The notes: a model not told the origin generated them from the letters alone. DNA of 64,000 nt from an uncultured bacterium (GCA_964635295.1 CAZWOB010000001.1:47743-111742), one strand, 5' to 3'; shown: positions 1 through 31,110, counted from the stretch's first letter. Translations and numbers: made by a program.

Positions 1-109
1 TGAATGAAAGGTACGAACCGGTAAACAAGCCAATACGTGTTGAATTGGATGTATAGAAATTCCTTAGTGTGGGAGAAAACCTGTTCTTCCGCTATATTTT
101 TTCTCATTT

Positions 110-343
110 ATGGGGAGAAACTTTATGGCGCTTGCAATCGAGCAGTACGATCTATTCGACACCAGGTCATATGATGAAAAGCTTAGGGATGAATTGTTTC
201 AGAAAGTGGATGCTTTGAAAGCTAGCCAGGATAAAAGCCGGCGTAAGCTTTTTGGGATGGTCAACGATCTGATGAAGATTGTTATCCGTCTTGAGAAGGA
301 AAATGACAACCTGCGCCAGATGCTATTGAAAGAGGTGAAGTGA
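110..343 (+). CDS. hypothetical coiled-coil protein (plus-strand pair at left edge of window)
   Basis: 77-aa ORF with charged helical sequence (LRDELFQKVDALKASQDKSRRKL, LEKENDNLRQML). Its TGA stop overlaps the GTG start of the next ORF (GTGA at 340-343). Confidence 0.4.
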   Translation: MGRNFMALAIEQYDLFDTRSYDEKLRDELFQKVDALKASQDKSRRKLFGMVNDLMKIVIRLEKENDNLRQMLLKEVK

Positions 344-822
344 AAACAAGAACATTAATTACTAAAGAGCAAAAACTAAGGGCTTGGGGTCCGGGCCAAT
401 GGGTGGATGAACCAGATGCAGCTGAGTTTGTATCTCACGGATTAAATTGCCGTGTGATCCGAAATGGGAAGATTATTAGCGATGACCTCATTGTTGGAGG
501 AGTTTGGTGTGGATATGTTGAGGTTGATGAGTCGATGAAGAGTAAATTTGCTGACTGCGAGGTGCATGGCGGGATTACTTGGGAAGGTCCTCGCCTTAAT
601 TTGTTCAATGAAGAAGAATCATTTTGTATTGGCTTTGACTGCAACCACGCTTTCGATATATCGCCCTCTAACAATGAGGAAAAAATGTTTGCGCTCATGG
701 GTGGCGAGATTTTCCCTAAAGAGTACAGGGATTTCGATTTTGCTATTTCAGAAACAAAATATCTGGCCAAACAAATTTCTGAGATTATGGAAAAAGAAAA
801 GGAGCCTTTACAGACTCCCTGA
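340..822 (+). CDS. hypothetical phage-associated protein, Cys/His/Trp-rich
   Basis: 160-aa ORF translationally coupled to 110..343. Motifs WGPGQWVDEPD, GGVWCGYVEV, HGGITWEG, CIGFDCNHAFD. The antisense ORF 435..770 is judged a shadow. Confidence 0.5.
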   Translation: MKTRTLITKEQKLRAWGPGQWVDEPDAAEFVSHGLNCRVIRNGKIISDDLIVGGVWCGYVEVDESMKSKFADCEVHGGITWEGPRLNLFNEEESFCIGFDCNHAFDISPSNNEEKMFALMGGEIFPKEYRDFDFAISETKYLAKQISEIMEKEKEPLQTP

Positions 823-861
823 AAACACTTTTAAATAAGAATCGGAAATGAGATCTTCAGC

Positions 862-1029
862 TTAACCGTCTTCCGGTGTCAGGTCAATATCTATTCCAGT
901 GTGATGCTCGATAACATCCTCCATAGCCTCTTCAAGGGGGTGATCATCCTGAAGGCCAAGCTTGTCATTGATCACCGAGCAAGCGCCGAAGCACATCCCG
1001 ACAAACAGCATTGATAACGCAAGTTTCAT
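862..1029 (-). CDS. small acidic lipoprotein (phage moron, spanin-like or exclusion-like)
   Basis: Internal ATG at 1029 is preceded by AAGGA with 7-nt spacing. N-terminus MKLALSMLFVGMCFGAC is a signal peptide plus lipobox Cys. The mature part is about 39 aa and strongly acidic. The longer 862..1095 start lacks an RBS. Confidence 0.5.
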   Translation of the reverse strand: MKLALSMLFVGMCFGACSVINDKLGLQDDHPLEEAMEDVIEHHTGIDIDLTPEDG

Positions 1030-1197
1030 AAGTACATCCTTGTATTTGTAGAACATTTCATATCCTATGTAATTATTCATCCATGAAGTAAACATCTGAA
1101 AGCCCCACTTCTCTTAAACCTTCTCTGATATAAGTTAGATCGTAGATGAACGATTCGTTGCGTCTTCTGAAGATGAAAAATAAAGGTCCGTCCAAGA

Positions 1198-1419
1198 TCA
1201 ATAGGTCCCATTGAAATAAGCTTGTTTTTCGTCATCTGACATCGATGCGGAGCTTGCGATCTTATCCCGTGCAGAATTCATTAAGGCCTGCCTAGCCTGC
1301 TCTTCCTGTTCTGCTTGTTGCTGTATGGCTTCGTTGGCTGCCCATTCATCTCTGACAGCCTGTTCCTCTTGAAGGGTTAATTCTACTTTCCTGCCATTTA
1401 CTTGCTTATATAAAACCAT
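1198..1419 (-). CDS. hypothetical small phage protein downstream of the tail fibres
   Basis: 73-aa ORF, Gln/Glu-rich helix, last gene of the minus-strand fibre cluster. Confidence 0.45.
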   Translation of the reverse strand: MVLYKQVNGRKVELTLQEEQAVRDEWAANEAIQQQAEQEEQARQALMNSARDKIASSASMSDDEKQAYFNGTY

Positions 1420-1426
1420 GATTGAC

Positions 1427-2185
1427 CTACGATGGGGTTAAACCGTATAAACGGAATGTTCCTGACTCAATGTTTCCGCTGCTCATAAAGAACTGGATAG
1501 CATCCACAGCTTCTGCCGCCAGTCTAGCCCCTGCACTTCGATTGTTTACCAATTGATCAACATAGTTCATATAAGTTGCCCTGGCCGTCATCATTGTATA
1601 TCCTGACCCTGATGGGTTAAACAAATCTAAAATAATATTTCCACTTTCATTTGTGTCGCTTCCTAACTCAGTACCAGCTAATAGTCTAATATAAGTAAAT
1701 CCTCCAGCAAAACCATTAATATTACTACTGCTATTGGCTGATTGATAGATATATCCATAGTCATAATTTGAAGCACCTGAATCAAAAGTTGATCCATTGT
1801 CGCTGGAAGTACGAATTCTAAACTCAACTTCATCAGTTTCCGGAACTAAATCTGTTATCACCCATTGGTATTGGATATAGCTCGAATCTAAATCCGTAAA
1901 TTCAATCGTAGCATCGTTTGATGCTGTAGTCGAAGAAATGAAAGTCCACGCCCCAGAACCAGCCGCATTTGTTGCCCACTTCAATCCAGTCGATTCCCCG
2001 CTGTCAGCTGTTAAGACCTGATCGTTACTTCCCACACCAATGCGTTGATAAGCCGATCCATCGTAAACTAACAAATCACCTTTCGTCGTCAGGTCAATAG
2101 GGGTAAAACTTCCGTCGGATGGATCGAAGATTTGAAGCCCTTCACCAGTGATATTCATACTGTTTATCGTCATGCTACCGTCCAA
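1427..2185 (-). CDS. tail fibre protein
   Basis: 252 aa. N-terminal motif TTKGDLLVYDGSAYQRIGVGSNDQVLTADSGESTGLKWA is typical of phage fibre N-termini. Overlaps the upstream fibre ORF by 16 nt. Confidence 0.6.
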   Translation of the reverse strand: MDGSMTINSMNITGEGLQIFDPSDGSFTPIDLTTKGDLLVYDGSAYQRIGVGSNDQVLTADSGESTGLKWATNAAGSGAWTFISSTTASNDATIEFTDLDSSYIQYQWVITDLVPETDEVEFRIRTSSDNGSTFDSGASNYDYGYIYQSANSSSNINGFAGGFTYIRLLAGTELGSDTNESGNIILDLFNPSGSGYTMMTARATYMNYVDQLVNNRSAGARLAAEAVDAIQFFMSSGNIESGTFRLYGLTPS

Positions 2186-3327
2186 CTCCCTACTGAATTA
2201 ATTACTCTAAATCTGTTTGCATCAACACAAACGATGACCACGCTATCCCCTTGATTTAACGATTCGATATAACCCCCGGCTCCAGATGTAGAAGCCGTGT
2301 TACCGAACCGTATTTGCTGAGACGCATTTTGAGCGATTCTGACCTTGCCAGCGCCTTCCTGGTATGCAGCGAAGGCGTCATTAATGTTACACGATACAGG
2401 AAGCGTTAAAGTGACTGTTCCTGCGTTATTTGCAAAAATACCTTCATTGGCTACCAGAGTCCTGGAAGTACCCGTCTCCTCATCCCATACGAAACCGGCA
2501 CTAGCTCCCCCAGCAGGAGTTACCCATCCATCTGAGTTAACATTGAAGAAATTGGAGTCGAGCTGTACAAGTCCAACAGCATCCTTATTCCCTGGAGCAG
2601 AAGAGGAGCTTCCCGCCACCTGCAACTGTAAATCGATGTCGTCTGTCGAAGGATTTCTTGCTGAAAACAAAGGTTTGGAGTTGGTTCCATTATCGACCAC
2701 GCTTCCTGTAAGATCGATGTCGCCATTCGCATCAGCTGTTGCAGTGTTTGTATCATCCAGGGTAAAGGATGCAATGGGTGGGTTTACCGTGCTTCCTTTC
2801 AAAGACACCATTCCTGAAGTTGCATCCTGTTGGAACTGGTTCTCATTGAATGAGCAGATCCCAGCTTGGGAAGCGTCTCCTGGCGTTGGAGTCACCGTTG
2901 TGCTGATCTGTATTTCCCCGTCTTGCAGGCTAGATCCTGGCGTTCCTTTAAAATGCAGGGCTTTTGAGTTGGTTGCATTGGCTACAGTCTTACCATTGAA
3001 CGTAATCGTACCGCCAGTCGGACCAACAGCACCACCGGAGTCTCCTGTTATAGATGATACTGTACCACCTGGACTAGTCGACGTAGATATGAGCTTCCAG
3101 TCAGCAGAATTAGACGTGATGTCCGCCAGATAATAAAGGTCGCCCTCTGTTGAGCTGTCTGTAGGGTTTTTTCCTACTCTCCAAAAGTGAGGCCTCTCAT
3201 AGTATTTCGCTGTCCTTGGATCTTTGATGTCTGTCGACAAGGGAGCTCTTGAGACATTGACATAAGGACAAGTAAACTTTTCTAATCTCTGATTCGCCTG
3301 TCTGTTAAAATTATTCGGCTTAGGCAT
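2170..3327 (-). CDS. tail fibre / spike protein (Gly/Ser/Thr-rich)
   Basis: 385 aa, Gly/Thr/Ser-rich, repetitive beta-type composition, lies within the fibre cluster. The large antisense ORF 2345..3133 is judged a shadow. Confidence 0.55.
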   Translation of the reverse strand: MPKPNNFNRQANQRLEKFTCPYVNVSRAPLSTDIKDPRTAKYYERPHFWRVGKNPTDSSTEGDLYYLADITSNSADWKLISTSTSPGGTVSSITGDSGGAVGPTGGTITFNGKTVANATNSKALHFKGTPGSSLQDGEIQISTTVTPTPGDASQAGICSFNENQFQQDATSGMVSLKGSTVNPPIASFTLDDTNTATADANGDIDLTGSVVDNGTNSKPLFSARNPSTDDIDLQLQVAGSSSSAPGNKDAVGLVQLDSNFFNVNSDGWVTPAGGASAGFVWDEETGTSRTLVANEGIFANNAGTVTLTLPVSCNINDAFAAYQEGAGKVRIAQNASQQIRFGNTASTSGAGGYIESLNQGDSVVIVCVDANRFRVINSVGSWTVA

Positions 3328-3329
3328 CC

Positions 3330-3989
3330 TTAAAAACTCCTTATCGGTGGACCATCATCAGTTCGGACATTTGTAAAGGTTACAGTTCCGTTATTTCCAT
3401 TTCCGCTCAAATCTCTCTCAGGTGAATCACCAATGCATGACCAGAAACCAATAAGATTTTCCCTTACACTTCCAGGCTTATGCATCGTTTCAACAATTTC
3501 TGACTGACTTAATTGCCGATCCCAAATTTGTGGGTAACAAAAGTAACCAAGTGCGTTGTCATTCAAAGAAGCATTATTTACAAAAATTAGATCATTTCCT
3601 GAATCGCTACTGCTTGAACCTGTTGGTGCAGTTTGCAGGGAGTTGGTTAAAAGATTCCCATTATAATACAGCAACACCCTATTTGATGTTGAGCTTGAGT
3701 CGTAAACAAAAGAGAAGTATCCCCATACATTTGTCAATGAAACATCAGCTTGATCGAAATAATTTGTGCCACTAAATTCTTGAACGAAAAAAACCCTGTC
3801 AGTTCCAGTAACCGTGTAAGAAAAGTTCCACCCATTGTTTTTTTCAAAGTAATATCCGGATGATGCCGTTGGCCTAGCCCAGAAACAAACGGTTCCTCCA
3901 CCAGAAAAAATATTCGTTAGAATAGAATCCGAACCGAAATTGATGTTCGGCGATCCAATCGAATTAGCGATGTATCTGCTACACCCCAT
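3330..3989 (-). CDS. LamG / concanavalin-like jelly-roll domain protein (receptor-binding accessory)
   Basis: 219 aa. GGGTVCFWARPTASSGYYFEK ... RVLLYYNGNLL ... IWDRQLSQSEI resembles the LamG-type lectin fold pattern. Confidence 0.5.
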   Translation of the reverse strand: MGCSRYIANSIGSPNINFGSDSILTNIFSGGGTVCFWARPTASSGYYFEKNNGWNFSYTVTGTDRVFFVQEFSGTNYFDQADVSLTNVWGYFSFVYDSSSTSNRVLLYYNGNLLTNSLQTAPTGSSSSDSGNDLIFVNNASLNDNALGYFCYPQIWDRQLSQSEIVETMHKPGSVRENLIGFWSCIGDSPERDLSGNGNNGTVTFTNVRTDDGPPIRSF

Positions 3990-4693
3990 TATGCCCTCGG
4001 TATCTCTACTGAAAAACCCACTACGTATAAATCACCATTCAGGTTAGTACCTGAAGGTGCTATTCGTGACAATCTAGCCATCACGAAATCATCAGCCGAC
4101 CATCCAAGATTGCTGACCGTTTCTGTCCATGTCGCCTCTGTAATATCATCTTGCGTCCCGTCAATTGCAAGATCCCCCGAATCAACACTTGTGTAAGAAC
4201 CGTCCCATGATTCGGAATTATCTACCGCTCTGTGATCGAAGGCAAGTTGTACAAATCGGGAAGCCACAGCAGTCGCCGCATACATCCAAACCCGAAACGT
4301 TACTGTTCCTGAAGTGTCAATATCCGATGGTGCTTTGAAAGAAAAATTCACGAACTCCTCAATTGTGTCATTAAAAGCTCTGGATAATATCCGGGAAGTT
4401 GAACCATTATCCTGATTTAAAGGAGCAAAGTTTGTCTCTAAAGCGTCGAAATCAGATGCCTTATAATAGTACACCTTATCAGGAATAGTACCCCCACTCT
4501 CTGCCGCCCACGAAGGAATTCCAGAAGCCAGCTTCAATACCTCACCGTCAGAGCCGGCAGCTAGCTTAGAAAGAGTAGTAGAATCCGAAGCATAAAGAAT
4601 ATCTCCAGCGTTATAACTTGATTGTCCCGTACCACCATTATCTGCCGACACAGGCGTAGATAGACCAGAACCTCCACTTATCGTTCCATCCAT
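3989..4693 (-). CDS. tail fibre protein
   Basis: 234 aa. N-terminus VSADNGGTGQSSYNAGDILYASDSTTLSKLAAGSDGEVLKLASGIPSWA is the same fibre N-terminal motif class as 1427..2185. Confidence 0.6.
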   Translation of the reverse strand: MDGTISGGSGLSTPVSADNGGTGQSSYNAGDILYASDSTTLSKLAAGSDGEVLKLASGIPSWAAESGGTIPDKVYYYKASDFDALETNFAPLNQDNGSTSRILSRAFNDTIEEFVNFSFKAPSDIDTSGTVTFRVWMYAATAVASRFVQLAFDHRAVDNSESWDGSYTSVDSGDLAIDGTQDDITEATWTETVSNLGWSADDFVMARLSRIAPSGTNLNGDLYVVGFSVEIPRA

Positions 4694-5028
4694 TAAAACC
4701 TCTTCACGTTAAAGATAATATCCCCTGATGTACCTGCACCCGTCACCTGCTTAACCTGCACCTGAGCCCCTCCAGGTAGGCAGTACCTGCTGTCTTCAGA
4801 CCTTCCGTCCCAGTTATCCCTGTTGTCTGAGAAAGATCCGCCAGCTGGTATGACAGGGCCATTTGTCGCACCATCATCGAAAGAGCTCTGTACAGACACA
4901 TCTGAGTCATTGAAAATCACAAAACCATATGCAGCGCTTTCAAGAACAGATCCCAGGTCCTGATAGCTTCCTGTTAGACTGGTAGAATCAAATGATCTCG
5001 CTGGGTCGTAAATAGGTAATCTAGCCAT
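4693..5028 (-). CDS. hypothetical virion protein
   Basis: 111-aa ORF tightly packed in the structural operon (shares its boundary base with 3989..4693). Confidence 0.45.
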   Translation of the reverse strand: MARLPIYDPARSFDSTSLTGSYQDLGSVLESAAYGFVIFNDSDVSVQSSFDDGATNGPVIPAGGSFSDNRDNWDGRSEDSRYCLPGGAQVQVKQVTGAGTSGDIIFNVKRF

Positions 5029-5038
5029 CTACTCCCCC

Positions 5039-5617
5039 TTAAATTGACTGAACAACGTAGTAAACGCGAACAGAAACAGTGTTGTCATTGGCAGCGTTTC
5101 CGGCTATCTCGCCATCTCCGGTATTGTGCAATACCAACGCCTGGTTTTCTGCTGAAGCGGCAGCTACGATTGCATCTGATGCCGGCTCACCGTTGGTGTA
5201 GGTGTCGGCAGTGGCATCGATGAAGTTAGTGGATTCAATTGTACCGGAGACTGCTACACCAGACCCATTGGTATACTTGATAGCAAGGTTATCAGCACTT
5301 TCTGTAAAAGCGTTTGAGCCTCCGTAATTCAGTTTAAGCAATGCTCCCATGAACTTAATCGCAGATCCTGCACCTTGTGCAGCGACGAGGGTTTGAGGAG
5401 TGGCGCGCAGGGCTTTTACCTCAGCGGAAGTAAGCGTTACATCAGCGTGTTGAAGGAAACCTGCTTGACCGAGATATGTTGTTAATGACTTTGGAGACAG
5501 GTAAACATCGTCTCTTGTCTCGTCTACAGCCTCGGTTGCAGTGGCGAATCTGGCTATCCCTGCTCTCGTTTCTCTAGCCTGCTCTACCATCGCTGTTCTG
5601 TTGGGGTACTTTGGCAT
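5039..5617 (-). CDS. virion structural protein (fibre/collar-like N-terminus)
   Basis: 192 aa. Strong RBS AAGGAGGAAGTA before the ATG. FATATEAVDETRDDVYLSPKSL resembles the conserved fibre/collar N-terminal motif. Confidence 0.5.
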   Translation of the reverse strand: MPKYPNRTAMVEQARETRAGIARFATATEAVDETRDDVYLSPKSLTTYLGQAGFLQHADVTLTSAEVKALRATPQTLVAAQGAGSAIKFMGALLKLNYGGSNAFTESADNLAIKYTNGSGVAVSGTIESTNFIDATADTYTNGEPASDAIVAAASAENQALVLHNTGDGEIAGNAANDNTVSVRVYYVVQSI

Positions 5618-5685
5618 TACTTCCTCCTTGAAGTAAGAAATTCATTTAAGTTTTCTAAAACACTAAGTTTTAGTACAATAAAAAT

Positions 5686-5850
5686 ATGAACGCAATTGAT
5701 CGAAGAAAAAAACAATTAGAAGAAGAAACTGCAAAGCGTAAGGCGAAAAACGTAAAGTTTTTCTTGTTTTGCGCCTTTCTAACATTCTTTTACCTTCCTC
5801 TAGGGATTGTAGGAATGTTTTATTGTTTGCTGTTTCTTGACTACTCCTGA
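5686..5850 (+). CDS. small tail-anchored membrane peptide, antisense to the structural operon (not in the supplied ORF track, under 60 aa)
   Basis: Translated by hand: MNAIDRRKKQLEEETAKRKAKNVKFFLFCAFLTFFYLPLGIVGMFYCLLFLDYS (54 aa). TACAAT box lies 5-10 nt upstream of the ATG. The 3' end overlaps the stop of 5841..8342 by 10 nt. Confidence 0.4.
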   Translation: MNAIDRRKKQLEEETAKRKAKNVKFFLFCAFLTFFYLPLGIVGMFYCLLFLDYS

Positions 5851-22985: not shown

Positions 22986-22988
22986 TTC

Positions 22989-23216: not shown

Positions 23217-23245
23217 TTAGTTCCTTTAAATTTCGTAACCTTTCG

Positions 23246-23323: not shown

Positions 23324-23329
23324 ATTCAA

Positions 23330-24098: not shown

Positions 24099-24099
24099 T

Positions 24100-24468
24100 T
24101 CACCTTTCTTTTGTTTCTTTTTTTACTTTCTCAATCCTGTCGCTAAAGACTCTGTGCAAAAATATTCTTATGAACTCTTCAAGAACATTTTCATGAAAAA
24201 CCATATGATCGGAACAAAACATATCTGATTGATGATCTCCCACCTTTAAACGAACAACTGTTTGACATTCTTCTGGAGATTGCTTGTAAAGAAGTGAAGC
24301 CTGCCTTGGAACTGTCCAGCTGTTTCTTGAAAAACTATCTTCAAAATCAAACGTTTCGATCGGGTTGTTTACTTCAAATTGATTTCTGAGCTTTTCATTT
24401 TCATATAGAAGTCGTCTAATTTCAGACTCTAAATAATCGGTGTATCGTTTTGTGTATTCACTGATCAC
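24100..24468 (-). CDS. hypothetical protein (insert block)
   Basis: 122-aa ORF. Confidence 0.4.
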   Translation of the reverse strand: MISEYTKRYTDYLESEIRRLLYENEKLRNQFEVNNPIETFDFEDSFSRNSWTVPRQASLLYKQSPEECQTVVRLKVGDHQSDMFCSDHMVFHENVLEEFIRIFLHRVFSDRIEKVKKETKER

Positions 24469-24809
24469 TTTTTGTCCCTTCTCTCTTGTACAGGGTGTCT
24501 GCCGACATACTTACCGGCAGGGTGTCCCTGGCTTTCTGGGTAGTAGGCTTGCAAATACTCGTTTTGACGGATGGCTAGCAGAACATTGCAAAGCGTCTCT
24601 TCAACGATCTCAAACTGCTTTTGTGACAGCCTAAGCGCCTCATCGTACTTCTTTAGCGACTTCTCAACTTTAAGAAGACATCCATTAAGCTTACTAAGCT
24701 TTTGCTCCTGTACCTGCCCGTACTGCGTTAGAAACCGCTGATTCTCTCTTAACATCTCTTTGATAAGATTGGTGTGGAACGCTCTTTCATCTTTTGCTTC
24801 GTTGCCCAT
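24465..24809 (-). CDS. hypothetical coiled-coil protein (insert block)
   Basis: 114-aa ORF that starts 8 nt after the terL-N stop, with a GGAGAA RBS. Confidence 0.4.
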   Translation of the reverse strand: MGNEAKDERAFHTNLIKEMLRENQRFLTQYGQVQEQKLSKLNGCLLKVEKSLKKYDEALRLSQKQFEIVEETLCNVLLAIRQNEYLQAYYPESQGHPAGKYVGRHPVQERRDKK

Positions 24810-24817
24810 TCATTCTC

Positions 24818-25567
24818 CTAATTTAATGTGTATGTGGATTCCTTCCACCAAGGGAAAAAGAACAGCTTGTAATCCATCTCACCTGGCTCCTCTCCCTTAA
24901 CAGCCTTTTCCTGCGCCTGCTTGCAAATGTCGTAGAAATACCCGCCTCTCCCCTCACTCGTTGACTCGATAGTCACCTGCTGACCTATCGCAACCGTCTC
25001 AAGCGCCCCTTCAATGATCTCTTGCGCTTTTGCTGGGTATTTGGCGCATATCTTTCCAAATTCGCTGATATGAAGCCTCTGGAACGTTCCACCGCGTGGA
25101 GCGGTATCTACCACGTAGCTTGACCCATTTGCCCATCTAAGCATTCGCGTTGAATCCTTGGAAGCTGGGTTTAGCTTGGTTACCCAATCAGGCATCCGCT
25201 CCCAGGCAAACTTGACCTTGTTCTCAAAGATAAGTTCAGCGTTTTCTCTTCTGTCAGCAATAAACGTCGTGTCGATCGGAGTTTCATTGAAGATGCAGTC
25301 ATCGATGTAGTTAATGGCGTAGAATGTAGTCACGCCAAGCTGACGGCTTTTGGGGATGATCTTCAGCGGGTGAGGGTCTTTCAAGAGCTCAATTTGCGCC
25401 CAGTTGGGTTCAAAAAGCACAGGCTTTCCGTCTTTACCCTTTATCCAATAAAGCCCAGACTTCTTTGATAATCGCCACTCTTTATCTAAAAGCTTTGGAT
25501 TATCCTTGGCGTATATCTCAACAACTTTTCTAAAATCTGAAGTCATGAGATGGAACATAAACGACAA
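24818..25567 (-). CDS. terL: terminase large subunit, N-terminal ATPase half only
   Basis: 249 aa. NWAQIELL...IIPKSRQLGVTTF (Walker-A-like), RLHISEFGKI (Walker-B-like), TIESTSEG (coupling motif). Ends in FFFPWWKESTYTLN at the usual ATPase-nuclease linker. Confidence 0.8.
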   Translation of the reverse strand: MSFMFHLMTSDFRKVVEIYAKDNPKLLDKEWRLSKKSGLYWIKGKDGKPVLFEPNWAQIELLKDPHPLKIIPKSRQLGVTTFYAINYIDDCIFNETPIDTTFIADRRENAELIFENKVKFAWERMPDWVTKLNPASKDSTRMLRWANGSSYVVDTAPRGGTFQRLHISEFGKICAKYPAKAQEIIEGALETVAIGQQVTIESTSEGRGGYFYDICKQAQEKAVKGEEPGEMDYKLFFFPWWKESTYTLN

Positions 25568-25613
25568 TTAATAATTTATGAAAGAAAAAGAATTATTTAA
25601 CATGCTGATTATA

Positions 25614-25643
25614 TTGACTTTATGTCATTCATTGACATATAAT
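25614..25643 (+). promoter_or_regulatory. sigma70-type consensus promoter for the plus-strand moron cassette
   Basis: TTGACT (25614-25619), 18-nt spacer, TATAAT (25638-25643), about 40 nt upstream of the ATG at 25682. Confidence 0.6.
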
Positions 25644-25681
25644 ATAATCAAGATAAACAATAAAACAGAGACTTTAGCTCA

Positions 25682-25942
25682 ATGCCTGAAATCAGCCGAT
25701 TCCTGGGAATTATTATCAGAATGTACTATGTAGACCACCCTCCTAAGCATTTTCACGCACACTACAAAGAGTTTGTTGGTTTAATCTCTATTGAGTCTTG
25801 CGAGATGATTGAGGGAAATCTTCCAAAAAGAGCGCTTAAGTTGGTGCTTGAGTGGGCTTCTATTCACAAAGAAGAATTGTTGAGCAATTGGGAGCTGGCT
25901 GAAAAGCGAAAGCCTCTGAATAAAATTGAACCCTTGGAGTAG
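25682..25942 (+). CDS. DUF4160 family protein
   Basis: 86 aa. MPEISRFLGIIIRMYYVDHPPKHFHAHYKEF is the hallmark N-terminus of this family. Confidence 0.75.
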   Translation: MPEISRFLGIIIRMYYVDHPPKHFHAHYKEFVGLISIESCEMIEGNLPKRALKLVLEWASIHKEELLSNWELAEKRKPLNKIEPLE

Positions 25943-25944
25943 TG

Positions 25945-26199
25945 ATGCATACTGTGAGCAGGTTTTTTTATCTTAAAGATTACAAGGTGCTTTTGGAGTT
26001 TGATAATGCAGAATTTAAGATTGTAGATCTTGAGGAGATCGTGAACCAGGGTGGTGAAGTTTTTTCGTCCCTTAAAGATTTAGAATATTTTAAAACATTA
26101 TCTCTTGATGATCCTGATTACCCTAGCAGTATCTGCTGGCCTAATGGGGCTGATATCTGCCCCGACATTCTCTATGAAATGGGGAGGGATATTAGATGA
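25945..26199 (+). CDS. DUF2442 family protein
   Basis: 84 aa from the ATG at 25945 (the track uses the GTG at 25942). YKVLLEFDNAEFKIVDL ... ICWPNGADICPDILY is the family pattern. This is the usual partner of DUF4160. Confidence 0.65.
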   Translation: MHTVSRFFYLKDYKVLLEFDNAEFKIVDLEEIVNQGGEVFSSLKDLEYFKTLSLDDPDYPSSICWPNGADICPDILYEMGRDIR

Positions 26200-26438
26200 G
26201 TGCTTTTTTTAGTGCTGACGAATTTCATGAAGAAGTGTTTGGTGGTAGACCAAAGGGATCTGTTTGTCTTGCTGGCGCAAGGAAAAGGGAAGATCTTACC
26301 CAGGCACAGCTTGGCGAGATGATCGGCGTATCACAATACAATATTTCAAAGATGGAGAGGGGTCATAGACCTATTGGAAAAGACATCGCTAAGCGTTTGG
26401 CTAAGGTATTTAAGTGTGATTATAGGGTGTTTCTTTGA
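26196..26438 (+). CDS. XRE-family helix-turn-helix protein
   Basis: 80 aa. LTQAQLGEMIGVSQYNISKMERGHRPIGKDIAKRLAKVF. ATGA overlap with the previous gene. Confidence 0.7.
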   Translation: MSAFFSADEFHEEVFGGRPKGSVCLAGARKREDLTQAQLGEMIGVSQYNISKMERGHRPIGKDIAKRLAKVFKCDYRVFL

Positions 26439-26442
26439 AGGG

Positions 26443-26868
26443 CTAGTTTTCCTTTCCCATGTCTCTTTGAGCCTGCTGACCTGCTAAGAAAGCTTTCATG
26501 AGGTCGCCCTCTTTCTCAGCCCTTTTCATCTCTTTAAGCATAGCTCGATGCTCATCGTCGTATGTAGCTAGAGACGCTTTTACAATGCCGGCATCTACAT
26601 CGCCTCTTAGTCCCATTTTCTCTCTTCTTACTCCGACATTACACCTGGCAATTTTAAGAGCTTCGGAAAAGGTGGGGGATTTGTCGGCTAAATAGGTGAG
26701 CCATTGTGGCCCGTACCCCCTCGATGCAGGAAACTCTCTTAAGATAATTGCGTCGTCTGTTTTAGACCACTCAATGAGCTGTTCTGCTTCTTTTTCAATT
26801 AAATCAGCCGTCCATTTTTCAGGCCTTCCAATGCCATGGCCACCATGTTTACTTTTCTTGTCTGCCAC
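26443..26868 (-). CDS. terS: terminase small subunit
   Basis: 141 aa with a GTG start preceded by AAGGA. GRPEKWTADLIEKEAEQLIEW ... FSEALKIARCNVGVRRE resembles the small-terminase pattern. Lies upstream of terL. Confidence 0.6.
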   Translation of the reverse strand: MADKKSKHGGHGIGRPEKWTADLIEKEAEQLIEWSKTDDAIILREFPASRGYGPQWLTYLADKSPTFSEALKIARCNVGVRREKMGLRGDVDAGIVKASLATYDDEHRAMLKEMKRAEKEGDLMKAFLAGQQAQRDMGKEN

Positions 26869-26927
26869 TTCGTCGTCCTTGACGCTTGGTTATGAAAGCT
26901 TATTTTTGCTGAGCATGAATAAAAAGA

Positions 26928-26980
26928 AAAGCCCTCTTTCCTTAATTTGAACCATTAGGAGGTAGAGGGCCTGGAGGATT
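26928..26980 (-). terminator. putative intrinsic terminator between the early region and the packaging module
   Basis: Minus strand GCCCTCT-N26-AGAGGGC (plus 26941-26980), followed by TTTTCTTTTTATT. The loop is long, so support is moderate. Confidence 0.35.
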
Positions 26981-27031
26981 CATATGAAATTCAAATGGAA
27001 AAAAATGAAGTTCAATTACTTGATCACCATT

Positions 27032-27232
27032 TCAACATAGCGGAAGATTGGTTTTTGTTGAAGGGTCATCTACGATAAAAAGTATTTCCTTCGAAGCGTC
27101 CAGTCTTTCAATCTTTATCCCTGAGAGTCGTCTGCCAGCTGTTCCGAGCTTGTTCGCTTTTCTGACAAGGTACTCAAGATCTTCTTTCTTCAGCTCTCCG
27201 ATCAGTGATAAGGCATGCTCTTCAATCATCAT
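27032..27232 (-). CDS. hypothetical protein
   Basis: ORF 27032..27268 trimmed to the internal Met (MMIEEHAL) to limit overlap with 27222..27536. Confidence 0.35.
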   Translation of the reverse strand: MMIEEHALSLIGELKKEDLEYLVRKANKLGTAGRRLSGIKIERLDASKEILFIVDDPSTKTNLPLC

Positions 27233-27536
27233 CTTCTCTTTGCTTTTCTGTTTTGTAGAAAGCCCCATCGATCAGGTTGATGTCGTCTTTGACCTGCTCC
27301 ACCATGTCTTTGGGCTGAATCTTTCCATCGTCGTCGAAATAGTATATTTGCTCAAAGGCTTGAAGCGAGTCAAGGAAAAGCATCTCACAGATAGCCTTGA
27401 AAGACTCTCGATATAGTTTTTTATCCTTCTCAAGACATAGTAAAAAAATCTGCTCAAGACCTGTTGTCAATGTGTCTTTAGCAATATTTAATAGCCTTAC
27501 ATCTTCAATTGAAAATGGATTATCTTTTTTATTCAT
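27222..27536 (-). CDS. hypothetical protein
   Basis: 104-aa acidic ORF with a 4-nt overlap with the DUF1064 gene. Confidence 0.4.
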   Translation of the reverse strand: MNKKDNPFSIEDVRLLNIAKDTLTTGLEQIFLLCLEKDKKLYRESFKAICEMLFLDSLQAFEQIYYFDDDGKIQPKDMVEQVKDDINLIDGAFYKTEKQREDDD

Positions 27537-27856
27537 ACTTTATTTACCACGTTAATTTGGATTGGAAACAGGCTTTCGACCTGTTTTCTTTTCGTTTTTG
27601 AGACAGGCGTGTCAATGCCTTTGACGTCCGTGAACACTACATCGCCGTTTTCCCAGAACTCGATGAAGTCGATCACGTAGCGGATGTTGCCTGGTAGGTG
27701 GAAAGGTGCCTGGCGAAGGAAAAAGATGAGGTCTCCTGCTTCCTCAGCGCGTTTCAGCTTCTGGTAGTAGCGAGCTTCAAGTTTTGAGTCGAAGCGGAAG
27801 GAGTCAATTTCTGTGCGTTTTGCGCGGTATTTGTGTTTGATCGGTTTGAATGCCAT
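27533..27856 (-). CDS. DUF1064 family phage protein (nuclease-fold, replication/recombination module)
   Basis: 107 aa. KYRAKRTEIDSFRFDSKLEARYYQKLK ... YVIDFIEFWENGDVVFTDVKG ... KRKQVE matches the DUF1064 pattern. Confidence 0.65.
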   Translation of the reverse strand: MAFKPIKHKYRAKRTEIDSFRFDSKLEARYYQKLKRAEEAGDLIFFLRQAPFHLPGNIRYVIDFIEFWENGDVVFTDVKGIDTPVSKTKRKQVESLFPIQINVVNKV

Positions 27857-27964
27857 TCCGGAATTACCTCTCAGGCTTATTTTAAGCGTGTCTGAGACGA
27901 CTTTATAGCTTCTTAATGGTAAGAGTCCAGTTAAAAATTTTAGAGGTCTTAAAAGGCTTTAAAA

Positions 27965-28291
27965 TCAGTCTTGGTTTTGATTTGTTGGGATGAATCTTGA
28001 AATAACAACGCTGAAGGATGAAAAAATCAGGGTTTCAATCCATGACCTTGCTGTATCGATGCATTCACTTGAACTTCCCAAGTAGATTTGAAGAATAAAA
28101 ACTAAAATCCAGATGAAGGAGAAAAAAATTGCGAAAAAGAATGCGGCGCCCTGAAGGTCGTCGGCAGTTCCAAACTTCATGAATTTAAAGTTTATGAGGA
28201 AGGATCTCTCGGCAGCATTTTCTCCAGTGTAGTCGTCTTTTTTTTCCGCATCAAGGACATTTCCCGGATCGGGATCTCGAAGTGTTTTCAA
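27965..28291 (-). CDS. small two-TM membrane protein, candidate toxin partner of the Panacea protein (copy 1)
   Basis: 108 aa. Hydrophobic segments GAAFFFAIFFSFIWILVFILQIYLG and IETLIFSSFSVVISRFI. 4-nt overlap with the upstream DUF4065 gene. Confidence 0.5.
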   Translation of the reverse strand: MKTLRDPDPGNVLDAEKKDDYTGENAAERSFLINFKFMKFGTADDLQGAAFFFAIFFSFIWILVFILQIYLGSSSECIDTARSWIETLIFSSFSVVISRFIPTNQNQD

Positions 28292-28755
28292 TGTTCGGTT
28301 CCCAGCATTTTTTCAAAATATTCCTGGATATATTCGTTGGGGATTGTCTGGTTGCGGTAGTGGGTCCCTGATCCGTTCACAATACGATCCCAGGGCCCTC
28401 CACGCTCATGCGTCCAGTTCGATAGCTTTTCTGCTGGAAAATCTGCGTAGTTGTCCCAGATAAACTCCAAAATCTCGCGGATTTTTGGATCGTCAATTTG
28501 CGCATTAAACTTGGGAATTTGCCTGTCAATTTTCTGGGAAACATGCCTCTTGAATGCGTGGTAAATTGAGGGTAAAACTGGACCAAATTTCCAGGCCTCA
28601 AAAAGCTCGTTGACGAGGGGCTTGCCTTGATAAACCAGGCAATAAGCGTGAGCGAGATAAATCAGCTTTTGCATTTTCATGGGTGAAATGCTTTTGTTGC
28701 TCATCGAAGCATGCTTGAGAAAGCAATTGGCAATTGTTTCAGCGCGGTAGCACAT
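28288..28755 (-). CDS. Panacea / DUF4065 (SocA/GepA-like) domain protein (copy 1)
   Basis: 155 aa. ISPMKMQKLIYLAHAYCLVYQGKPLVNELFEAWKFGPVLPSIYHAFK is the hallmark of DUF4065. Confidence 0.75.
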   Translation of the reverse strand: MCYRAETIANCFLKHASMSNKSISPMKMQKLIYLAHAYCLVYQGKPLVNELFEAWKFGPVLPSIYHAFKRHVSQKIDRQIPKFNAQIDDPKIREILEFIWDNYADFPAEKLSNWTHERGGPWDRIVNGSGTHYRNQTIPNEYIQEYFEKMLGTEH

Positions 28756-28763
28756 GGTTCCCC

Positions 28764-29708
28764 TCAGTAACAGCCAGCGTGGAGTTTCGTTCTCTCAACC
28801 GCTTCCATCTTCTCGTCAAGTCGGCGTATAAGCTCTTGTCCTCTCATGAAAAGAGGAATTTCCGTCCCTGGCATGTTGGGGATGATAACAAAGTTTCCGT
28901 TTTCCTGGAATTCATAGAAATTATTTTGCCTCTGCCACTGCCTGAAAACCTCCCTGCCAAACTCAACACCGGGAGGTGTGGCCTCGATGTTCTGTCGGCA
29001 AATCTGGAGAAAAGTTCCCGCGCAATTGGTCATCTCCCTCCCCTGCCTTCGGTATCGGTCGGCTCTTTGCCGAAACGCCTCGATGAAGTTTTCCACTCGA
29101 TCCAACGGATGACTCCTGCAAAGATCCAGAGCTGTCTTTTCGTTGAACGACTCGCCTTTGTGGTTTTTGAGGTTCATGGCCAGGATTTTTTCGTATGCCA
29201 CCCGCTGATTCGGCGTCAAGTTTTCTGAGTTATGAACAATTTTAGAGCAGGGAGCAGCCCTTTCCTGCTTTTTCTTGCTTTCTGAAGATATACCTTTAGG
29301 TATATCTGAAGATTGTAGGTCACTTTTGACCTGCCCGTTGGAGGTGGTCACTTTTGACCTGCCCGCAAATTTTTTGAATTTGTTTTTGTCGATAAAAATT
29401 TTTCTTGATTCTTTCCATCGAAGTTTTCCGTTTTTCTGGTAGGGTGTATTTTCTTGAGTGATGAAGGCATATCCATGGTCAACGAGACTTTTTACCCGTC
29501 TTTGAAAAGTCGATACGGAGCACCCGACAATTTCGGCCAGCTCTTCATTTGAAGCCCAGCAGTAATCTTTCTTTTTGCAGAATACGACCAGGTACGGGTA
29601 AAGATTTTTTGCTCCATGGTTAATTCTCTTATCACGCATTAACTTCATTGGGACTGGCGGAATTGATTCAGGAGCCTTAAGTTTTTGACGATCTGTTGTT
29701 TCGGTCAT
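28764..29708 (-). CDS. replication-initiator-like winged-HTH protein
   Basis: Start set at the ATG at 29708 (MTETTDRQ); the track's 29777 start is TTG. NLYPYLVVFCKKKDYCWASNEELAEIVGCSVSTFQRRVKSLVDHGYAFI is a replisome-organiser-type HTH. Iteron-like repeats lie inside the linker region. Confidence 0.5.
   Translation of the reverse strand: MTETTDRQKLKAPESIPPVPMKLMRDKRINHGAKNLYPYLVVFCKKKDYCWASNEELAEIVGCSVSTFQRRVKSLVDHGYAFITQENTPYQKNGKLRWKESRKIFIDKNKFKKFAGRSKVTTSNGQVKSDLQSSDIPKGISSESKKKQERAAPCSKIVHNSENLTPNQRVAYEKILAMNLKNHKGESFNEKTALDLCRSHPLDRVENFIEAFRQRADRYRRQGREMTNCAGTFLQICRQNIEATPPGVEFGREVFRQWQRQNNFYEFQENGNFVIIPNMPGTEIPLFMRGQELIRRLDEKMEAVERTKLHAGCY
29281..29400. repeat. iteron-like repeats plus AT-rich tract (candidate phage origin)
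   Basis: GGTCACTTTTGACCTGCCCG occurs at 29318-29337 and 29346-29365. It is preceded by TCTGAAGA-TATACC-TTTA-GGTATA-TCTGAAGA (29281-29312) and followed by an A/T-rich run (29366-29400). Confidence 0.55.
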
Positions 29709-29827
29709 CCTTGACCTTTCAGATTTTGGGATTGGAGGGAGCGTGCACGAAAATTTCCGTTTTTTCGTGTTGCACAAATCGCCATAGGCGTGCTATTTTT
29801 TTTCATATCTATAAAGTTATGTTTAGG

Positions 29828-29855
29828 GCTGCCTCATCTAGAGGCGGCTTTTTTT
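29828..29855 (+). terminator. plus-strand intrinsic terminator upstream of (antisense to) the initiator gene
   Basis: GCTGCCTC-atcta-GAGGCGGC is an 8-bp stem including one G-T pair, followed by TTTTTTT (29849-29855). Confidence 0.55.
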
Positions 29856-30039
29856 ATGCCCTGGGGGGCGAAGTTTCTAAATATTTTCTAAGAGTTGTCT
29901 GTGTGAAGAAAGTGCTGTAAAGCACTCATTAAGAAGGGTTTTAATTCAAAAACCGTGTCTGGGAATGTATGTTATGTTGCATTTACAAACATCCTCAATG
30001 CCTACCAGTCCAAGCGTCCATTGGCTTATCTTCGTCACT

Positions 30040-30100
30040 TCACGGTAAAGGACACGTCGCCGTTTCTCCAGAAGACGATGAAGTCGGTTTTGAAACGATT
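30040..30100 (-). pseudogene. remnant of a second DUF1064 gene
   Basis: The minus strand translates KTDFIVFWRNGDVSFTVK-stop, homologous to VIDFIEFWENGDVVFTDVKG of 27533..27856. The 5' two-thirds of the gene are missing. Confidence 0.6.
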
Positions 30101-30140
30101 TTACAGCCTCATAAGGGCTTAGGGTCTTAGGAGGAAAGAC

Positions 30141-30473
30141 TTAAAGTGAGTCTTGAGATTGTTTTGTTGGGATGTATCTTGAGATAACCACGCTGAAGGA
30201 TGAAAAAATTAAATTTTCAAGCCATGACCTTGCAGTATCGATGCAGTTGCTTGAAGTTTCGCATTTGAGTTGGAAACAAAAAACTAAAATCCAGATAAAA
30301 GAAAAGAAAATTGCAAAAAAGAATGCAGCACCCTGAAGGTCGTCACGTGTCCCAAACTTCATAAATTTTAAGCTGATAAAGAAAGATCGCTCTGAAGCAT
30401 TGTCTCCTGTGTAGTCGTCTTTTTTTTCTGCATTAATTACATTTTCCGGATCAGGATCTCGAAGCTTTTTCAA
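30141..30473 (-). CDS. small two-TM membrane protein, candidate toxin partner (copy 2)
   Basis: 110 aa, clearly paralogous to 27965..28291 (MKKLRDPDPENVINAEKKDDYTGDNASERSF..., identical core GAAFFFAIFFSFIWILVF). Confidence 0.5.
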   Translation of the reverse strand: MKKLRDPDPENVINAEKKDDYTGDNASERSFFISLKFMKFGTRDDLQGAAFFFAIFFSFIWILVFCFQLKCETSSNCIDTARSWLENLIFSSFSVVISRYIPTKQSQDSL

Positions 30474-30937
30474 TGTTCGGCTCCCAACATCTTTTCAAAA
30501 TACTCCTGGATATATTCGTTTGGAATGGTCTGATTCCGATAATGTGTTCCTGACGCGTTCACAATACGATCCCAGGGTCCTCCGCGTTCATGCGTCCAGT
30601 TTGAGAGTTTTTCTGCTGGAAAATCAGCGTAATTGTCCCAGATAAACTCCAAAATCTTGAGGATTTTTGGATCGTCAATTTGTGCATCAAATTTGGGAAT
30701 TTGCCTGTCAATTTTCTGGGATACGTGCCTCTTGAATGCGTGGTAAATCGAAGGTAAAACTGGCCCAAACTTCCATGCTTCAAAAAGTTCGTTTACAAGG
30801 GGTTTTTTTTGGTAAACGAGGCAATAGGCATGAGCAAGATAAATCAACTTTTGCATTTTCATTGGCGAAATGCTTTTATTGCTCAGTGAAGCAATATTGA
30901 GAAAGCGATTGGCGATTGTTTCAGCCCGGTAGCACAT
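30470..30937 (-). CDS. Panacea / DUF4065 domain protein (copy 2)
   Basis: Start set at MCYRAE (30937) by comparison with copy 1. By hand count, 10 substitutions over 155 aligned residues. Confidence 0.75.
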   Translation of the reverse strand: MCYRAETIANRFLNIASLSNKSISPMKMQKLIYLAHAYCLVYQKKPLVNELFEAWKFGPVLPSIYHAFKRHVSQKIDRQIPKFDAQIDDPKILKILEFIWDNYADFPAEKLSNWTHERGGPWDRIVNASGTHYRNQTIPNEYIQEYFEKMLGAEH

Positions 30938-30961
30938 GGTTCCCCCAGTTACTGCAGGCAT

Positions 30962-31110
30962 AAAGTTTCATTCTATTAAAAGGTTTCATCTTCTCTTCAA
31001 GTCTGTGCGTGAGTTTTTCACATCTGATGAAAATCTTGATCTCCGTTCGTTAGATGGTAGATAATGTAACAAAGTTTCCGTTTTCCCGGAACTGCAAGAA
31101 ATTTTTACGA
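30962..31110 (-). pseudogene. decayed 3'-end remnant of a second initiator gene
   Basis: Nucleotide similarity to 28756-28926 (for example aacaaagtttccgttttcc(t/c)gga). No intact reading frame. Confidence 0.55.

Follow-up and report, generated by a model that had tools for sequence, protein, structure and literature searches.

Mobile elements that encode no integrase of their own can enter a bacterial chromosome at dif by means of the host recombinases XerC and XerD. Described examples of such integrative mobile elements exploiting Xer (IMEX) are the filamentous Vibrio phages CTXphi, VGJphi and TLCphi, dif-type double-jelly-roll vibriophages, gokushovirus and microvirus proviruses and the gonococcal genetic island (PMC12715192, PMC4246890, PMC3091885, PMC7062461). 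The known members are tailless single-stranded DNA (ssDNA) or double-jelly-roll phages of less than about 16 kb or non-viral islands, and their hosts belong to the Proteobacteria or Bacteroidota. A survey of Vibrio from December 2025 discussed only non-tailed IMEXs and contrasted them with tailed phages that encode an integrase (PMC12715192). Here, we analyse a stretch of 64,000 nt from an uncultured bacterium (GCA_964635295.1 CAZWOB010000001.1:47743-111742), which as a whole is called the window in the following. It carries part of a prophage located at a dif-like site, and this element is best read as a tailed member of the IMEX.

The element resembles the known IMEXs by the lack of an own integrase, by a dif-like attP in which an XerC and an XerD arm flank a core of 6 bp, by insertion into the chromosomal dif, by hybrid junctions of which one regenerates a good dif, and by a tendency to arrays or remnants. 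It differs from them in being a 35.7-kb tailed double-stranded DNA podovirus, in its host phylum, which is Chlamydiota, and in that no RstR/XafT-type module was detected in the window phage.

The phages Chp1, Chp2, CPAR39 and phiCPG1 (Gokushovirinae, Microviridae) infect the same host phylum, but are tailless, have ssDNA genomes of ~4.5-5 kb and share no genes with this prophage; microvirus relatives in other phyla also use dif (PMC3091885, PMC7062461). For plasmids of P. massiliensis and Criblamydia sequanensis, Koestlbacher et al. (2021, PMC7846284) reported a "phage group" (terminase, tail tip protein L), considered a putative prophage. These are likewise tailed-phage genes in Chlamydiota, but plasmid-borne, siphovirus-like fragments, which are not described as a complete prophage and do not lie at dif. 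The first-pass annotation of the window had called a tailed prophage unusual for Chlamydia, a statement that these two plasmids qualify. According to a paper from 2024, no bacteriophage is known to infect Waddlia (PMC10880633). Our word-based and incomplete literature search returned no report of a tailed IMEX or of a chlamydial tailed prophage and, beyond the ssDNA microviruses of Chlamydia, no phage described for Chlamydiota. The element is best regarded as the first near-complete tailed temperate phage traced to Waddliaceae.

We consider it likely that this element is a temperate podovirus of ~35.7 kb that appears intact, has no recombinase of its own and entered the chromosome of an uncultured Waddliaceae bacterium at dif via host XerC/XerD. 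The window is divided as follows:

1..29982, minus strand: part of the 35.7-kb prophage inside the window, which runs on leftward to attL as shown by overlapping contigs
29955..29982, plus strand: attR, a dif-like site; direct repeat with attL, 18/22 matches to the chlamydial dif arms
29983..31106, minus strand: remnant of an older related prophage; 82.5% nucleotide identity over ~980 nt to 27952-28926, in the same gene order
31243..64000: host chromosome (Waddliaceae) with genes for an ankyrin protein, an OpuA-type ABC transporter, LemA, M48, kdsB-pyrG-ruvX, mevalonate genes and zwf (NCBIfam)

Contigs from other assemblies (L006, L007 and L023) were 100% identical to the window in the overlaps and reached further to the left. 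The prophage comprises positions 1-29,982 of the window plus 5.7 kb to the left of it, with attL at -5756 to -5729 relative to the window (3905-3932 of L006) and attR at 29955-29982. The left extension harbors phage genes for a Metallophos protein, a YqaJ exonuclease, a 253-aa protein resembling single-stranded DNA-binding protein (SSB), HTH_3 regulators, DUF29 and an antitoxin-like gene. Past attL, host genes follow for a P-loop protein, two 294-aa paralogues, DUF378, RHS/CAP, Bro-N, BrkB and ribBA. Proteins of the left flank and of the window are recorded together on one NCBI contig of 137,359 bp, and the window proteins also occur in JGI, ENA and Logan assemblies. The right phage/host junction was present at 99.9-100% identity in at least five assemblies (JGI, ENA, Logan), and the left junction recurred in at least three. 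The source samples are JGI 3300029267, 3300029258, 3300017987 and 3300017989, ENA ERZ27256778 and SRR14699967, SRR14699969 and SRR6963311. The metagenomic origin of the sequence and the breaks of some assemblies' contigs inside the prophage could point to an assembly chimera or to a phage contig contaminating a chlamydial bin. However, these breaks lie at a 980-nt internal duplication and not at the junctions, and both junctions were recovered with 99.9-100% identity from assemblies independent of each other (JGI, ENA, Logan). Since the junctions repeat across independent assemblies, we excluded a chimeric origin as extremely improbable.

These results corrected the first-pass annotation with respect to the extent of the element, which had been placed at 1-31110 but starts 5.7 kb to the left of the window and ends at attR. 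The annotation had proposed to look to the left for an integrase and att sites; attL was found there, but Pfam, PHROGs and precomputed Pfam tables revealed no integrase in the extension. Its worry about a chimera or contamination was removed by the reproducible junctions.

A comparison of the left extension with window positions 29.5-33 kb revealed one outstanding direct repeat, 17 bp if exact and 24 bp with two mismatches. The copies (L006 3914-3930 and window 29964-29980) are both intergenic. The attL 28-mer is ACGTCTGATAA-TGTATG-TTATGTTGCTT, and the attR 28-mer is GTGTCTGGGAA-TGTATG-TTATGTTGCAT, with a degenerate, phage-derived XerC arm and a canonical XerD arm on the host side. Compared to the chlamydial dif arms, attL scored 21/22 and attR 18/22, and the mismatches of attR were confined to its phage-derived XerC arm. 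In the 83 kb of composite sequence, attL and attR were the only sites with at least 18/22 matches; shuffled sequences gave 0.025 such sites each.

The attB site rebuilt from the host-derived halves (left arm of attL and right arm of attR) is ACGTCTGATAA-TGTATG-TTATGTTGCAT. Its XerC arm is identical at 11/11 positions to the predicted dif of C. abortus, Protochlamydia and W. chondrophila, and its XerD arm at 11/11 positions to that of C. caviae and C. felis. The dif sequences predicted by Kono et al. in 2011 are ACGTCTGATAATATGTATTATGTTGAAT for C. abortus, ACGTCTGATAACATATGTTATGTTTCTT for Protochlamydia, TGGTCTGATAATATGTATTATGTTGCAT for C. caviae and AGGTCTGATAATATTCATTATGTTGCAT for C. felis (PMC3025954, supplementary file 2), and Chlamydiae are one of the phyla for which a dif was predicted in every genome examined (PMC3025954). 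The table of that study, which covers several hundred genomes, contains GTCTGATAA 19 times and TTATGTTG 14 times, and among the entries listed all were chlamydial except Acidobacterium capsulatum (PMC3025954). Because A. capsulatum is listed with the XerC arm (Kono 2011), the arm motif is not limited to Chlamydiae. Most or all of the XerC arm (AC)GTCTGATAA was also present in the GC-rich contigs L013, L016, L111, L114, L132 and L169 (63-67% GC where computed; for L013 and L016 the high GC content was judged from flank sequence), and the core TGTATG occurred in L013, L016 and L111 as well. An exact search for the att pattern in IMG/VR gave 0 matches. Uninterrupted sites with the TGTATG core were found in other metagenome contigs, and one of them adjoins a chlamydial-type PFK gene with 52% identity to that of the metagenome-assembled genome (MAG) studied here.

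The pyrG gene product of the window (CTP synthase) showed 90% identity to WP_013182178.1 of W. chondrophila, with which it falls into one 90% cluster. Of the host part, 16.6 kb aligned to CP001928 at ~73% nucleotide identity with conserved gene order, and the gene order at 33.4-56 kb of the window corresponds to 1,177,296-1,198,912 of the W. chondrophila chromosome (CP001928). The colinear genes comprise the OpuA transporter, LemA, M48, DoxX, cation efflux, kdsB-pyrG-ruvX-EVE, RimK and the mevalonate genes. By these sequence comparisons, the host is a Waddliaceae MAG (phylum Chlamydiota), related to Chlamydia but not Chlamydia itself. The chlamydial affiliation proposed in the first-pass annotation was thus supported by pyrG and by the gene order of CP001928, but at the level of the family it had to be shifted to Waddliaceae.

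W. chondrophila has a dif-like site, ACGTCTGATAA-TATATC-TTATGTTGTAA, at position 1,177,644 of CP001928 (55.6% of the chromosome). The site is flanked by hicA and the OpuA transporter and is 435 bp upstream of the gene for the latter, a location equivalent to that of the prophage insertion. On the other side of this site follow HicAB, transposases and then Bro-N, BrkB, an 849-aa gene and ribBA, and these genes also lie past the left flank of the prophage in the MAG, the syntenic flank being made up of ribBA, an 864-aa gene, BrkB and Bro-N. Because the outer flanks are conserved on both sides of the W. chondrophila site, we concluded that the prophage occupies the syntenic dif locus; W. chondrophila itself has no prophage there. 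The few kb next to dif differ completely between both organisms: the MAG has a P-loop protein of 367 aa, two secreted 294-aa paralogues, DUF378 and RHS/CAP toxin-like genes, while its W. chondrophila counterpart has HicAB and transposases, with syntenic outer flanks. The stretch adjacent to dif looks like a terminus-proximal plasticity zone. Further to the right, at 40928-44811 of the window, the MAG has a gene for KefC-type K+ efflux (657 aa) and an open reading frame (ORF) of 312 aa, both of which W. chondrophila lacks at the matching position.

No integrase, resolvase or transposase was detected in any ORF of the 35.7-kb element by Pfam, PHROGs and precomputed Pfam tables. A tRNA scan of the window found none, which excludes attachment at a tRNA gene in this stretch. 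Integration at dif would explain the missing integrase. Chlamydiae possess XerC, XerD and FtsK. The circular phage would carry a dif-like attP, predicted as GTGTCTGGGAA-TGTATG-TTATGTTGCTT, in the non-coding gap between a small helix-turn-helix (HTH) gene and the replication initiator; the predicted sequence of the attP junction is ...CCGTGTCTGGGAATGTATGTTATGTTGCTTTTTGAAGC..., and that of the empty attB junction is ...CAACGTCTGATAATGTATGTTATGTTGCATTTACAAAC.... Recombination of this attP with the dif of the chromosome, ACGTCTGATAA-TGTATG-TTATGTTGCAT, would be catalysed by host XerC/XerD across the 6-bp central region, in which the two sites are identical. In the product attL, the XerC arm of the host and the XerD arm of the phage would form a near-perfect dif, which presumably still resolves chromosome dimers. 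In attR, the degenerate XerC arm of the phage and the XerD arm of the host would form a weaker site, and this would limit loss of the prophage driven by FtsK/Xer.

The attP was seen directly in two relatives of the phage at the same genome position; for the window phage it is derived from attL and attR. One of the two is a free relative: JBDLIP010000006.1 (35,891 bp) and Logan SRR27843388_221267 (35,822 bp) are circular permutations of one genome of ~35.8 kb. The MAG that holds JBDLIP010000006.1 is labelled "Pseudomonadota bacterium" by NCBI. Identities between the free relative and the window phage were 87.5% for the capsid, 84% for the nozzle, 80% for the portal, 80/77% for the two halves of the large terminase (TerL) and 66% for YqaJ. 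The whole structural and early modules are common to both genomes, the replication module is different, and every structural ORF of the window phage is full length compared to the free relative. The site of the free relative, GGGTCTGATAA-TGTATG-TTATGAAGTCA, lies in a gap of 556 bp upstream of rep, and its orientation with respect to the genes is inverted compared to the window phage.

The second relative is contig L014 (WUUC01119901.1), with the site ACGTCTGCCAA-TGTATG-TTATGTTGCAA, the XerC arm of which is degenerate at the same two positions as in the window phage. The gene order is TerL-N, terS and DUF1064, then DnaB and a rep-like gene, the site, a ParA-like gene, DUF29 and HTH, and finally an SSB-like gene and YqaJ. 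Because early genes are joined to replication and packaging genes across the site, this arrangement represents the circular junction predicted for the window phage. No integrase match was found in the free relative or in L014. The ParA/MipZ-type ATPase gene of L014 (3488-4372) lies ~570 bp from the dif-like site, and the N-terminus of its product matches the FtsK gamma domain weakly and below the threshold (E 7.6e-4). The FtsK gamma domain activates XerD.

These relatives bear on the view that the element is an ordinary prophage that lost its integrase and decayed, its position next to dif being a coincidence of a variable terminus region. Such a history would fit the lack of recognised lysis genes, the TerL in two pieces and the adjoining prophage remnant. 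But an unintegrated relative of 35.8 kb and L014 also have no integrase and have a dif-like site at the predicted attP position, the hybrid arms of attL and attR are exactly those predicted by a crossover in the dif core, all structural ORFs are full length compared to the relative, and the split of TerL is common to the free relative, with all motifs kept. We regard a decayed prophage as quite improbable.

The ParA/MipZ ATPase beside the L014 site, the ParB_N domains in two IMG/VR relatives and the recovery of a close relative as a circular genome could also indicate a phage-plasmid, in which the dif-like site would mainly serve Xer multimer resolution (like cer/psi) and the chromosomal copy would be an occasional by-product. 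Neither ParA nor ParB was present in the window phage or in the close relative, however, and the integrated form was found at 99.9-100% identity in at least five assemblies. That an earlier phage left a remnant at the site speaks for repeated integration, and in some IMG/VR relatives, e.g., L165, a perfect site adjoins a host-like gene. A phage-plasmid would still exploit Xer and would differ from our reading in emphasis, not in chemistry, and the copy in the window would still have entered at dif. We consider this explanation unlikely for the window phage; for a part of the family it may hold.

We also scanned IMG/VR with GTCTGATAA-N6-TTATGTTG and obtained at least 119 contigs; by a rough estimate, chance matches would be in single figures. 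Among the matches listed, the dif consensus was enriched outside the pattern used, with AC before it in 32/119 and CAT after it in 15/119. Sites with at least 20/22 matches numbered 44 among the matches listed, and 30 of these lay outside any ORF of at least 80 aa, compared to 37 of the 75 weaker sites. Homologues of window-phage genes were present on at least 55 contigs, many of 34-41 kb and with a GC content of 0.32-0.49. The shared genes were those for portal, TerL, capsid, nozzle, adaptor, YqaJ, Metallophos, DUF29, DUF1064 and fibres, and the homologues were mostly those of podovirus portal and terminase. We also ran a Pfam census on 83 ORFs (170-560 aa) that lie at 31 loci not more than 5 kb from the sites. 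It returned terminases, PD-(D/E)XK, YqaJ, RecT, ERF, DnaB, ParB and methylases, and the 25 families listed included no integrase, resolvase or transposase.

L181 from IMG/VR carries the W. chondrophila core TATATC. Perfect dif-like sites (22/22) with similar left flanks were seen in L165 (3300042562_003535) and L144 (2617271244_000001). In L165, a cation-efflux gene lies on one side of the site and homologues of fibre genes (42-53%) on the other, and this contig is probably another integrated prophage junction. The assumption that every motif match in IMG/VR is a dif-like site was rejected, as several matches lay inside a conserved gene start (MSDKHDYVG) or inside another conserved gene. The hosts of the IMG/VR set would be Chlamydiota, with the motif as the sole basis for this assignment. 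A portal-based search of IMG/VR gave one relative with 22% identity, and in a megablast search, 17 kb from the structural region matched none of 50,697 phage records. We see roughly even chances that tailed double-stranded DNA phages can do without an integrase by using host XerC/XerD at dif, and that the window phage is a member of a widespread, previously unrecognised lineage of podoviruses of 34-41 kb from environmental Chlamydiota, to which dozens of IMG/VR contigs would belong, some members having a two-polypeptide terminase.

Several points weigh against the reading of the element as a functional Xer-dependent phage. No attP or empty attB junction of this exact phage was recovered, and no activator of Xer of the XafT (DUF3653) type was found among the small genes by attP. 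Catalysis by XerC/XerD, the order of strand exchange, the junction that acts as dif, the route of excision and the present activity are all inferred from sequence. Because L014 has a ParA-type ATPase and two IMG/VR relatives have ParB_N, the site in these relatives may resolve episome multimers rather than integrate. The Pfam census contained 8 further single-member families outside the list mentioned above. The GC skew over the flanks of 10-34 kb in the MAG and in W. chondrophila was noisy, with no clear sign change at the site, and the Waddlia genome paper states no numerical position for the terminus; the assignment to a terminus dif rests on motif and synteny. Finally, the lack of recognised lysis genes together with the split TerL makes a defective element possible.

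The stretch beyond attR contains a second, incomplete set of phage genes:

30054-30086, minus strand: DUF1064 fragment
30141-30473, minus strand: toxin-like ORF of 110 aa
30470-30961, minus strand: Panacea-domain antitoxin (PF13274 SocA_Panacea, phrog_1281)
30962-31106, minus strand: 3' end of a rep gene

Positions 30135-31106 duplicate 27952-28926 of the prophage with the toxin-like ORF, the Panacea antitoxin and the 3' end of rep. Because of this duplication and the DUF1064 fragment, we interpret the stretch from attR to 31,110 as the decayed right end of an earlier prophage, as expected from serial integrations at dif. We looked near 31.1 kb for a third dif-like site as the outer boundary of the remnant, but saw only a weak half-site, GATAATGTA, at 31060. 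The contigs of some assemblies break at ~27,810, near the 980-nt repeat.

According to the ORF listing, the genes form a near-uniform minus-strand block from ~31.1 kb down to ~0.86 kb, and the only plus-strand genes are at 110-822 and 25682-26438. The packaging and head genes are:

26443..26868, minus strand: small terminase subunit terS, by position; homologues with 26-37% identity
24818..25567, minus strand: large terminase, N-terminal ATPase half (phrog_26724 2e-53; phrog_2, TerL, 1.6e-17)
21348..24817, minus strand: 3.4-kb insert that splits terL, with 12 small ORFs (DUF551, DUF7694, others)
20547..21347, minus strand: large terminase, C-terminal nuclease half (phrog_2472 1.9e-51)
17520..19598, minus strand: portal protein of the P22-like family (Pfam PF16510 P22_portal 3.3e-65; phrog_156 3e-71)
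16178..16807, minus strand: presumed scaffolding protein, by its position between portal and capsid; no family match
15227..16165, minus strand: major capsid protein (phrog_1357 1.6e-37; Pfam Phage_capsid_4 1.6e-5, just under the cut-off)
14505..15215, minus strand: immunoglobulin-like (Ig-like; FCCH) domain protein, possibly capsid decoration (weak PF16190 match)

In 16 of the 21 tabulated relatives from GTDB loci and in several IMG/VR relatives, a terS homologue directly precedes TerL on its upstream side. The ATPase half of TerL aligned to residues 1-~250 of contiguous TerLs and the nuclease half to their C-terminal half. The split point is the linker between ATPase and nuclease domain, which lacks ~6-8 residues; the conserved motifs are kept. 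A search around the 3.4-kb insert for a homing endonuclease, a recombinase or flanking repeats gave nothing. In the free relative, TerL is cut at the identical point, with one ORF of 147 aa (0.5-kb insert) between the halves, and TerL was one contiguous gene in all GTDB TerL relatives examined and in the IMG/VR relatives. Since a free genome has the split as well, a two-polypeptide terminase is presumably functional. TerL showed ~44-45% identity to TerLs of enterobacterial prophages.

An HK97-type capsid, a portal and a large terminase were all represented by family matches (phrog_1357, PF16510 and phrog_2/phrog_2472). The capsid protein had 24-28% identity to capsids of cultured phages from Paenibacillus, Bacillus and Xanthomonas hosts. 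Matches of the portal to solved portal chains in the PDB were weak to moderate (best 1.3e-10), and a PDB sequence search with the capsid, the proteins of 162, 212 and 219 aa and a profile of the 212-aa family gave no meaningful match. The presumed scaffold is 76% identical in the free relative, the homologue of the 14505-15215 protein in this relative carries PF16190.

The tail genes and the fibre genes follow downstream of the head genes:

13260..13898, minus strand: tail adaptor (gatekeeper) of 212 aa; AlphaFold model with a predicted local distance difference test (pLDDT) score of 84
10378..12585, minus strand: tail nozzle (hub) of 735 aa; AlphaFold model with pLDDT 82 and a predicted template modelling score (pTM) of 0.79
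5841..10101, minus strand: three overlapping ORFs of 182, 405 and 833 aa, presumed internal/ejection proteins by their position between nozzle and fibres
1427..5617, minus strand: tail fibre/receptor-binding module with ORFs of 192, 111, 234, 219 (LamG), 385 and 252 aa (PF13385 Laminin_G_3)

Tail structures were modelled with AlphaFold from alignments of homologues (22 and 21 sequences) and then compared by Foldseek. The nozzle model matched Pa223 (1e-23), SU10, VP1, cyanophage A4, T7 gp12, P22 gp10 and Sf6 gp8, with E-values from 1e-23 to 1e-10. The adaptor model matched VP1 (6e-9, TM 0.66), Pa223, GP4, SU10, A4, N4 and T7 gp11 (TM 0.53), and the TM range over the podovirus adaptors was 0.53-0.67. 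In the predicted models, a short podovirus-type tail made of an adaptor ring and a nozzle was confirmed by fold. The 182/405/833-aa trio, which is presumed by position to represent ejection proteins, has 79, 46 and 34% identity to its counterparts in the free relative; a family search of these ORFs gave nothing meaningful, with one marginal, spurious-looking SbcC match for the 405-aa protein. The ORFs of the fibre module matched PHROGs for tail fibres and of unknown function and had IMG/VR homologues with up to 64% identity. Across the structural module, PHROGs and Pfam revealed no sheath, tube, tape-measure or baseplate genes, and the sole match to a "major tail protein" was a 70-residue Ig-like domain inside the nozzle.

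No holin, endolysin or other lysis gene was recognised by PHROGs and Pfam in the phage or in the free relative. A 77-aa ORF just past the fibre genes (862-1095) has one hydrophobic segment and a lipobox-like FGAC motif, and it is the only lysis- or spanin-like lead. The early, replication and accessory genes in the window are:

1..822, plus strand: 3' end of the converging early operon, with the last 56 nt of Metallophos, an ORF of 72-77 aa and an ORF of 160 aa (phrog_2164)
25682..26438, plus strand: opposite-strand cassette of three genes (DUF4160, DUF2442, HTH_3) between terS and TerL-N (precomputed Pfam)
27533..27856, minus strand: DUF1064, Holliday-junction-resolvase-like (phrog_190 1.7e-24; PF06356)
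27965..28755, minus strand: toxin-antitoxin-like pair of a Panacea antitoxin (28288-28755) and a 108-aa partner (27965-28291)
28764..29777, minus strand: replication initiator (HTH_36, DnaD/O-like; Pfam HTH_36 1.7e-11; PHROGs replication-initiation ~1e-9)

With the DUF1064 protein, its L014 counterpart shares 53% identity and that of the free relative 69%. The Panacea antitoxin at 28288-28755 was assigned by phrog_1281 (2.3e-40) and by PF13274 in precomputed tables. The free relative also has an opposite-strand cassette between terS and TerL-N, but a different one with two genes.

Much of this gene inventory had been anticipated by the first-pass annotation. The minus-strand block was seen again in the ORF listing and the family searches, and PHROGs and Pfam agreed with its terS (by position), split terL, portal and capsid, the portal and the capsid having the family matches which it had named as decisive. 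Its guess of an adaptor and a nozzle was confirmed by the AlphaFold models of the 212-aa and 735-aa proteins, and its placement of the 212/219-aa pair, the 735-aa protein, the 182/405/833-aa trio and the fibre/LamG ORFs was retained. PHROGs and Pfam also bore out its failure to find sheath, tube, tape-measure or baseplate genes, an integrase, a holin or an endolysin. Its scaffold is presumed by position, and its decoration-like protein is a possible one by a weak PF16190 match. It had further reported no CI-type repressor, but HTH_3 regulators are present, one in the window (26196-26438) and two just to the left of it.

The missing integrase, the lack of recognised lysis genes and the occurrence of the same sequence in several samples would also be expected of a domesticated element (gene-transfer-agent-like or tailocin-like) kept by the host. 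The element has, however, kept a full replication module, recombination genes, regulators and toxin-antitoxin pairs, and the free circular relative with its swapped replication module displays phage-typical mosaicism. W. chondrophila does not have the element at the syntenic site. Domestication appears very improbable to us, and a temperate phage remains our preferred reading.

Among described tailed phages, the order of portal, scaffold, capsid, adaptor, nozzle, three internal proteins and fibres resembles T7- and P22-like phages, in which gp14-16 of T7 and gp7/20/16 of P22 likewise sit between nozzle and fibres. The folds of adaptor and nozzle match as well, and the portal belongs to the P22-like Pfam family. 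Identity to cultured phages was at most 28%, with ~22% for the portal to Burkholderia BcepIL02-like phages. The window phage differs from T7 and P22 in that it has neither T7-like RNA and DNA polymerases nor a P22-type tailspike, in its split TerL and in being temperate with a lambda-style early region. The core proteome of P22-like phages (coat, gp4, gp10, gp26 needle, tailspike) is not shared; only the portal family and TerL are, and neither at the nucleotide level nor for the capsid was a similarity to them found.

We rejected the idea that other chlamydial TerL loci represent the same kind of phage, as only terS and TerL are shared. One such locus, L035 (OY970369.1, chromosome of an "uncultured Chlamydiae bacterium", 1,364,776-1,385,426), has two tyrosine integrases, a DUF3987/DUF5906 primase-helicase and terS with a contiguous TerL. 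This island has no capsid genes nearby, adjoins waaA and leuS and looks like a phage satellite or remnant. L035-like TerL loci were present in five other chlamydial MAGs (L037, L039, L041, L046 and L091).

Beyond the first-pass annotation, the analysis adds an account of the missing integrase and evidence for a phage family. Xer-exploiting integration, described earlier for filamentous, double-jelly-roll and microvirus phages and some genomic islands, would be extended to tailed phages. Prophage finders and boundary tools that rely on an integrase would miss or mis-delimit such elements. The conserved two-piece terminase may serve as a natural test case for the cooperation of the ATPase and nuclease of TerL. 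The Chlamydiota would gain a near-complete tailed temperate phage with a defined attachment site. As L181 shares the dif core of the cultivable W. chondrophila, a dif-targeted integration vector or the search for an infective phage would become a concrete aim in this group, in which genetic manipulation is notoriously difficult. For these obligate intracellular bacteria, the element would testify to phage traffic into the cell, at a "plasticity zone" of the terminus.

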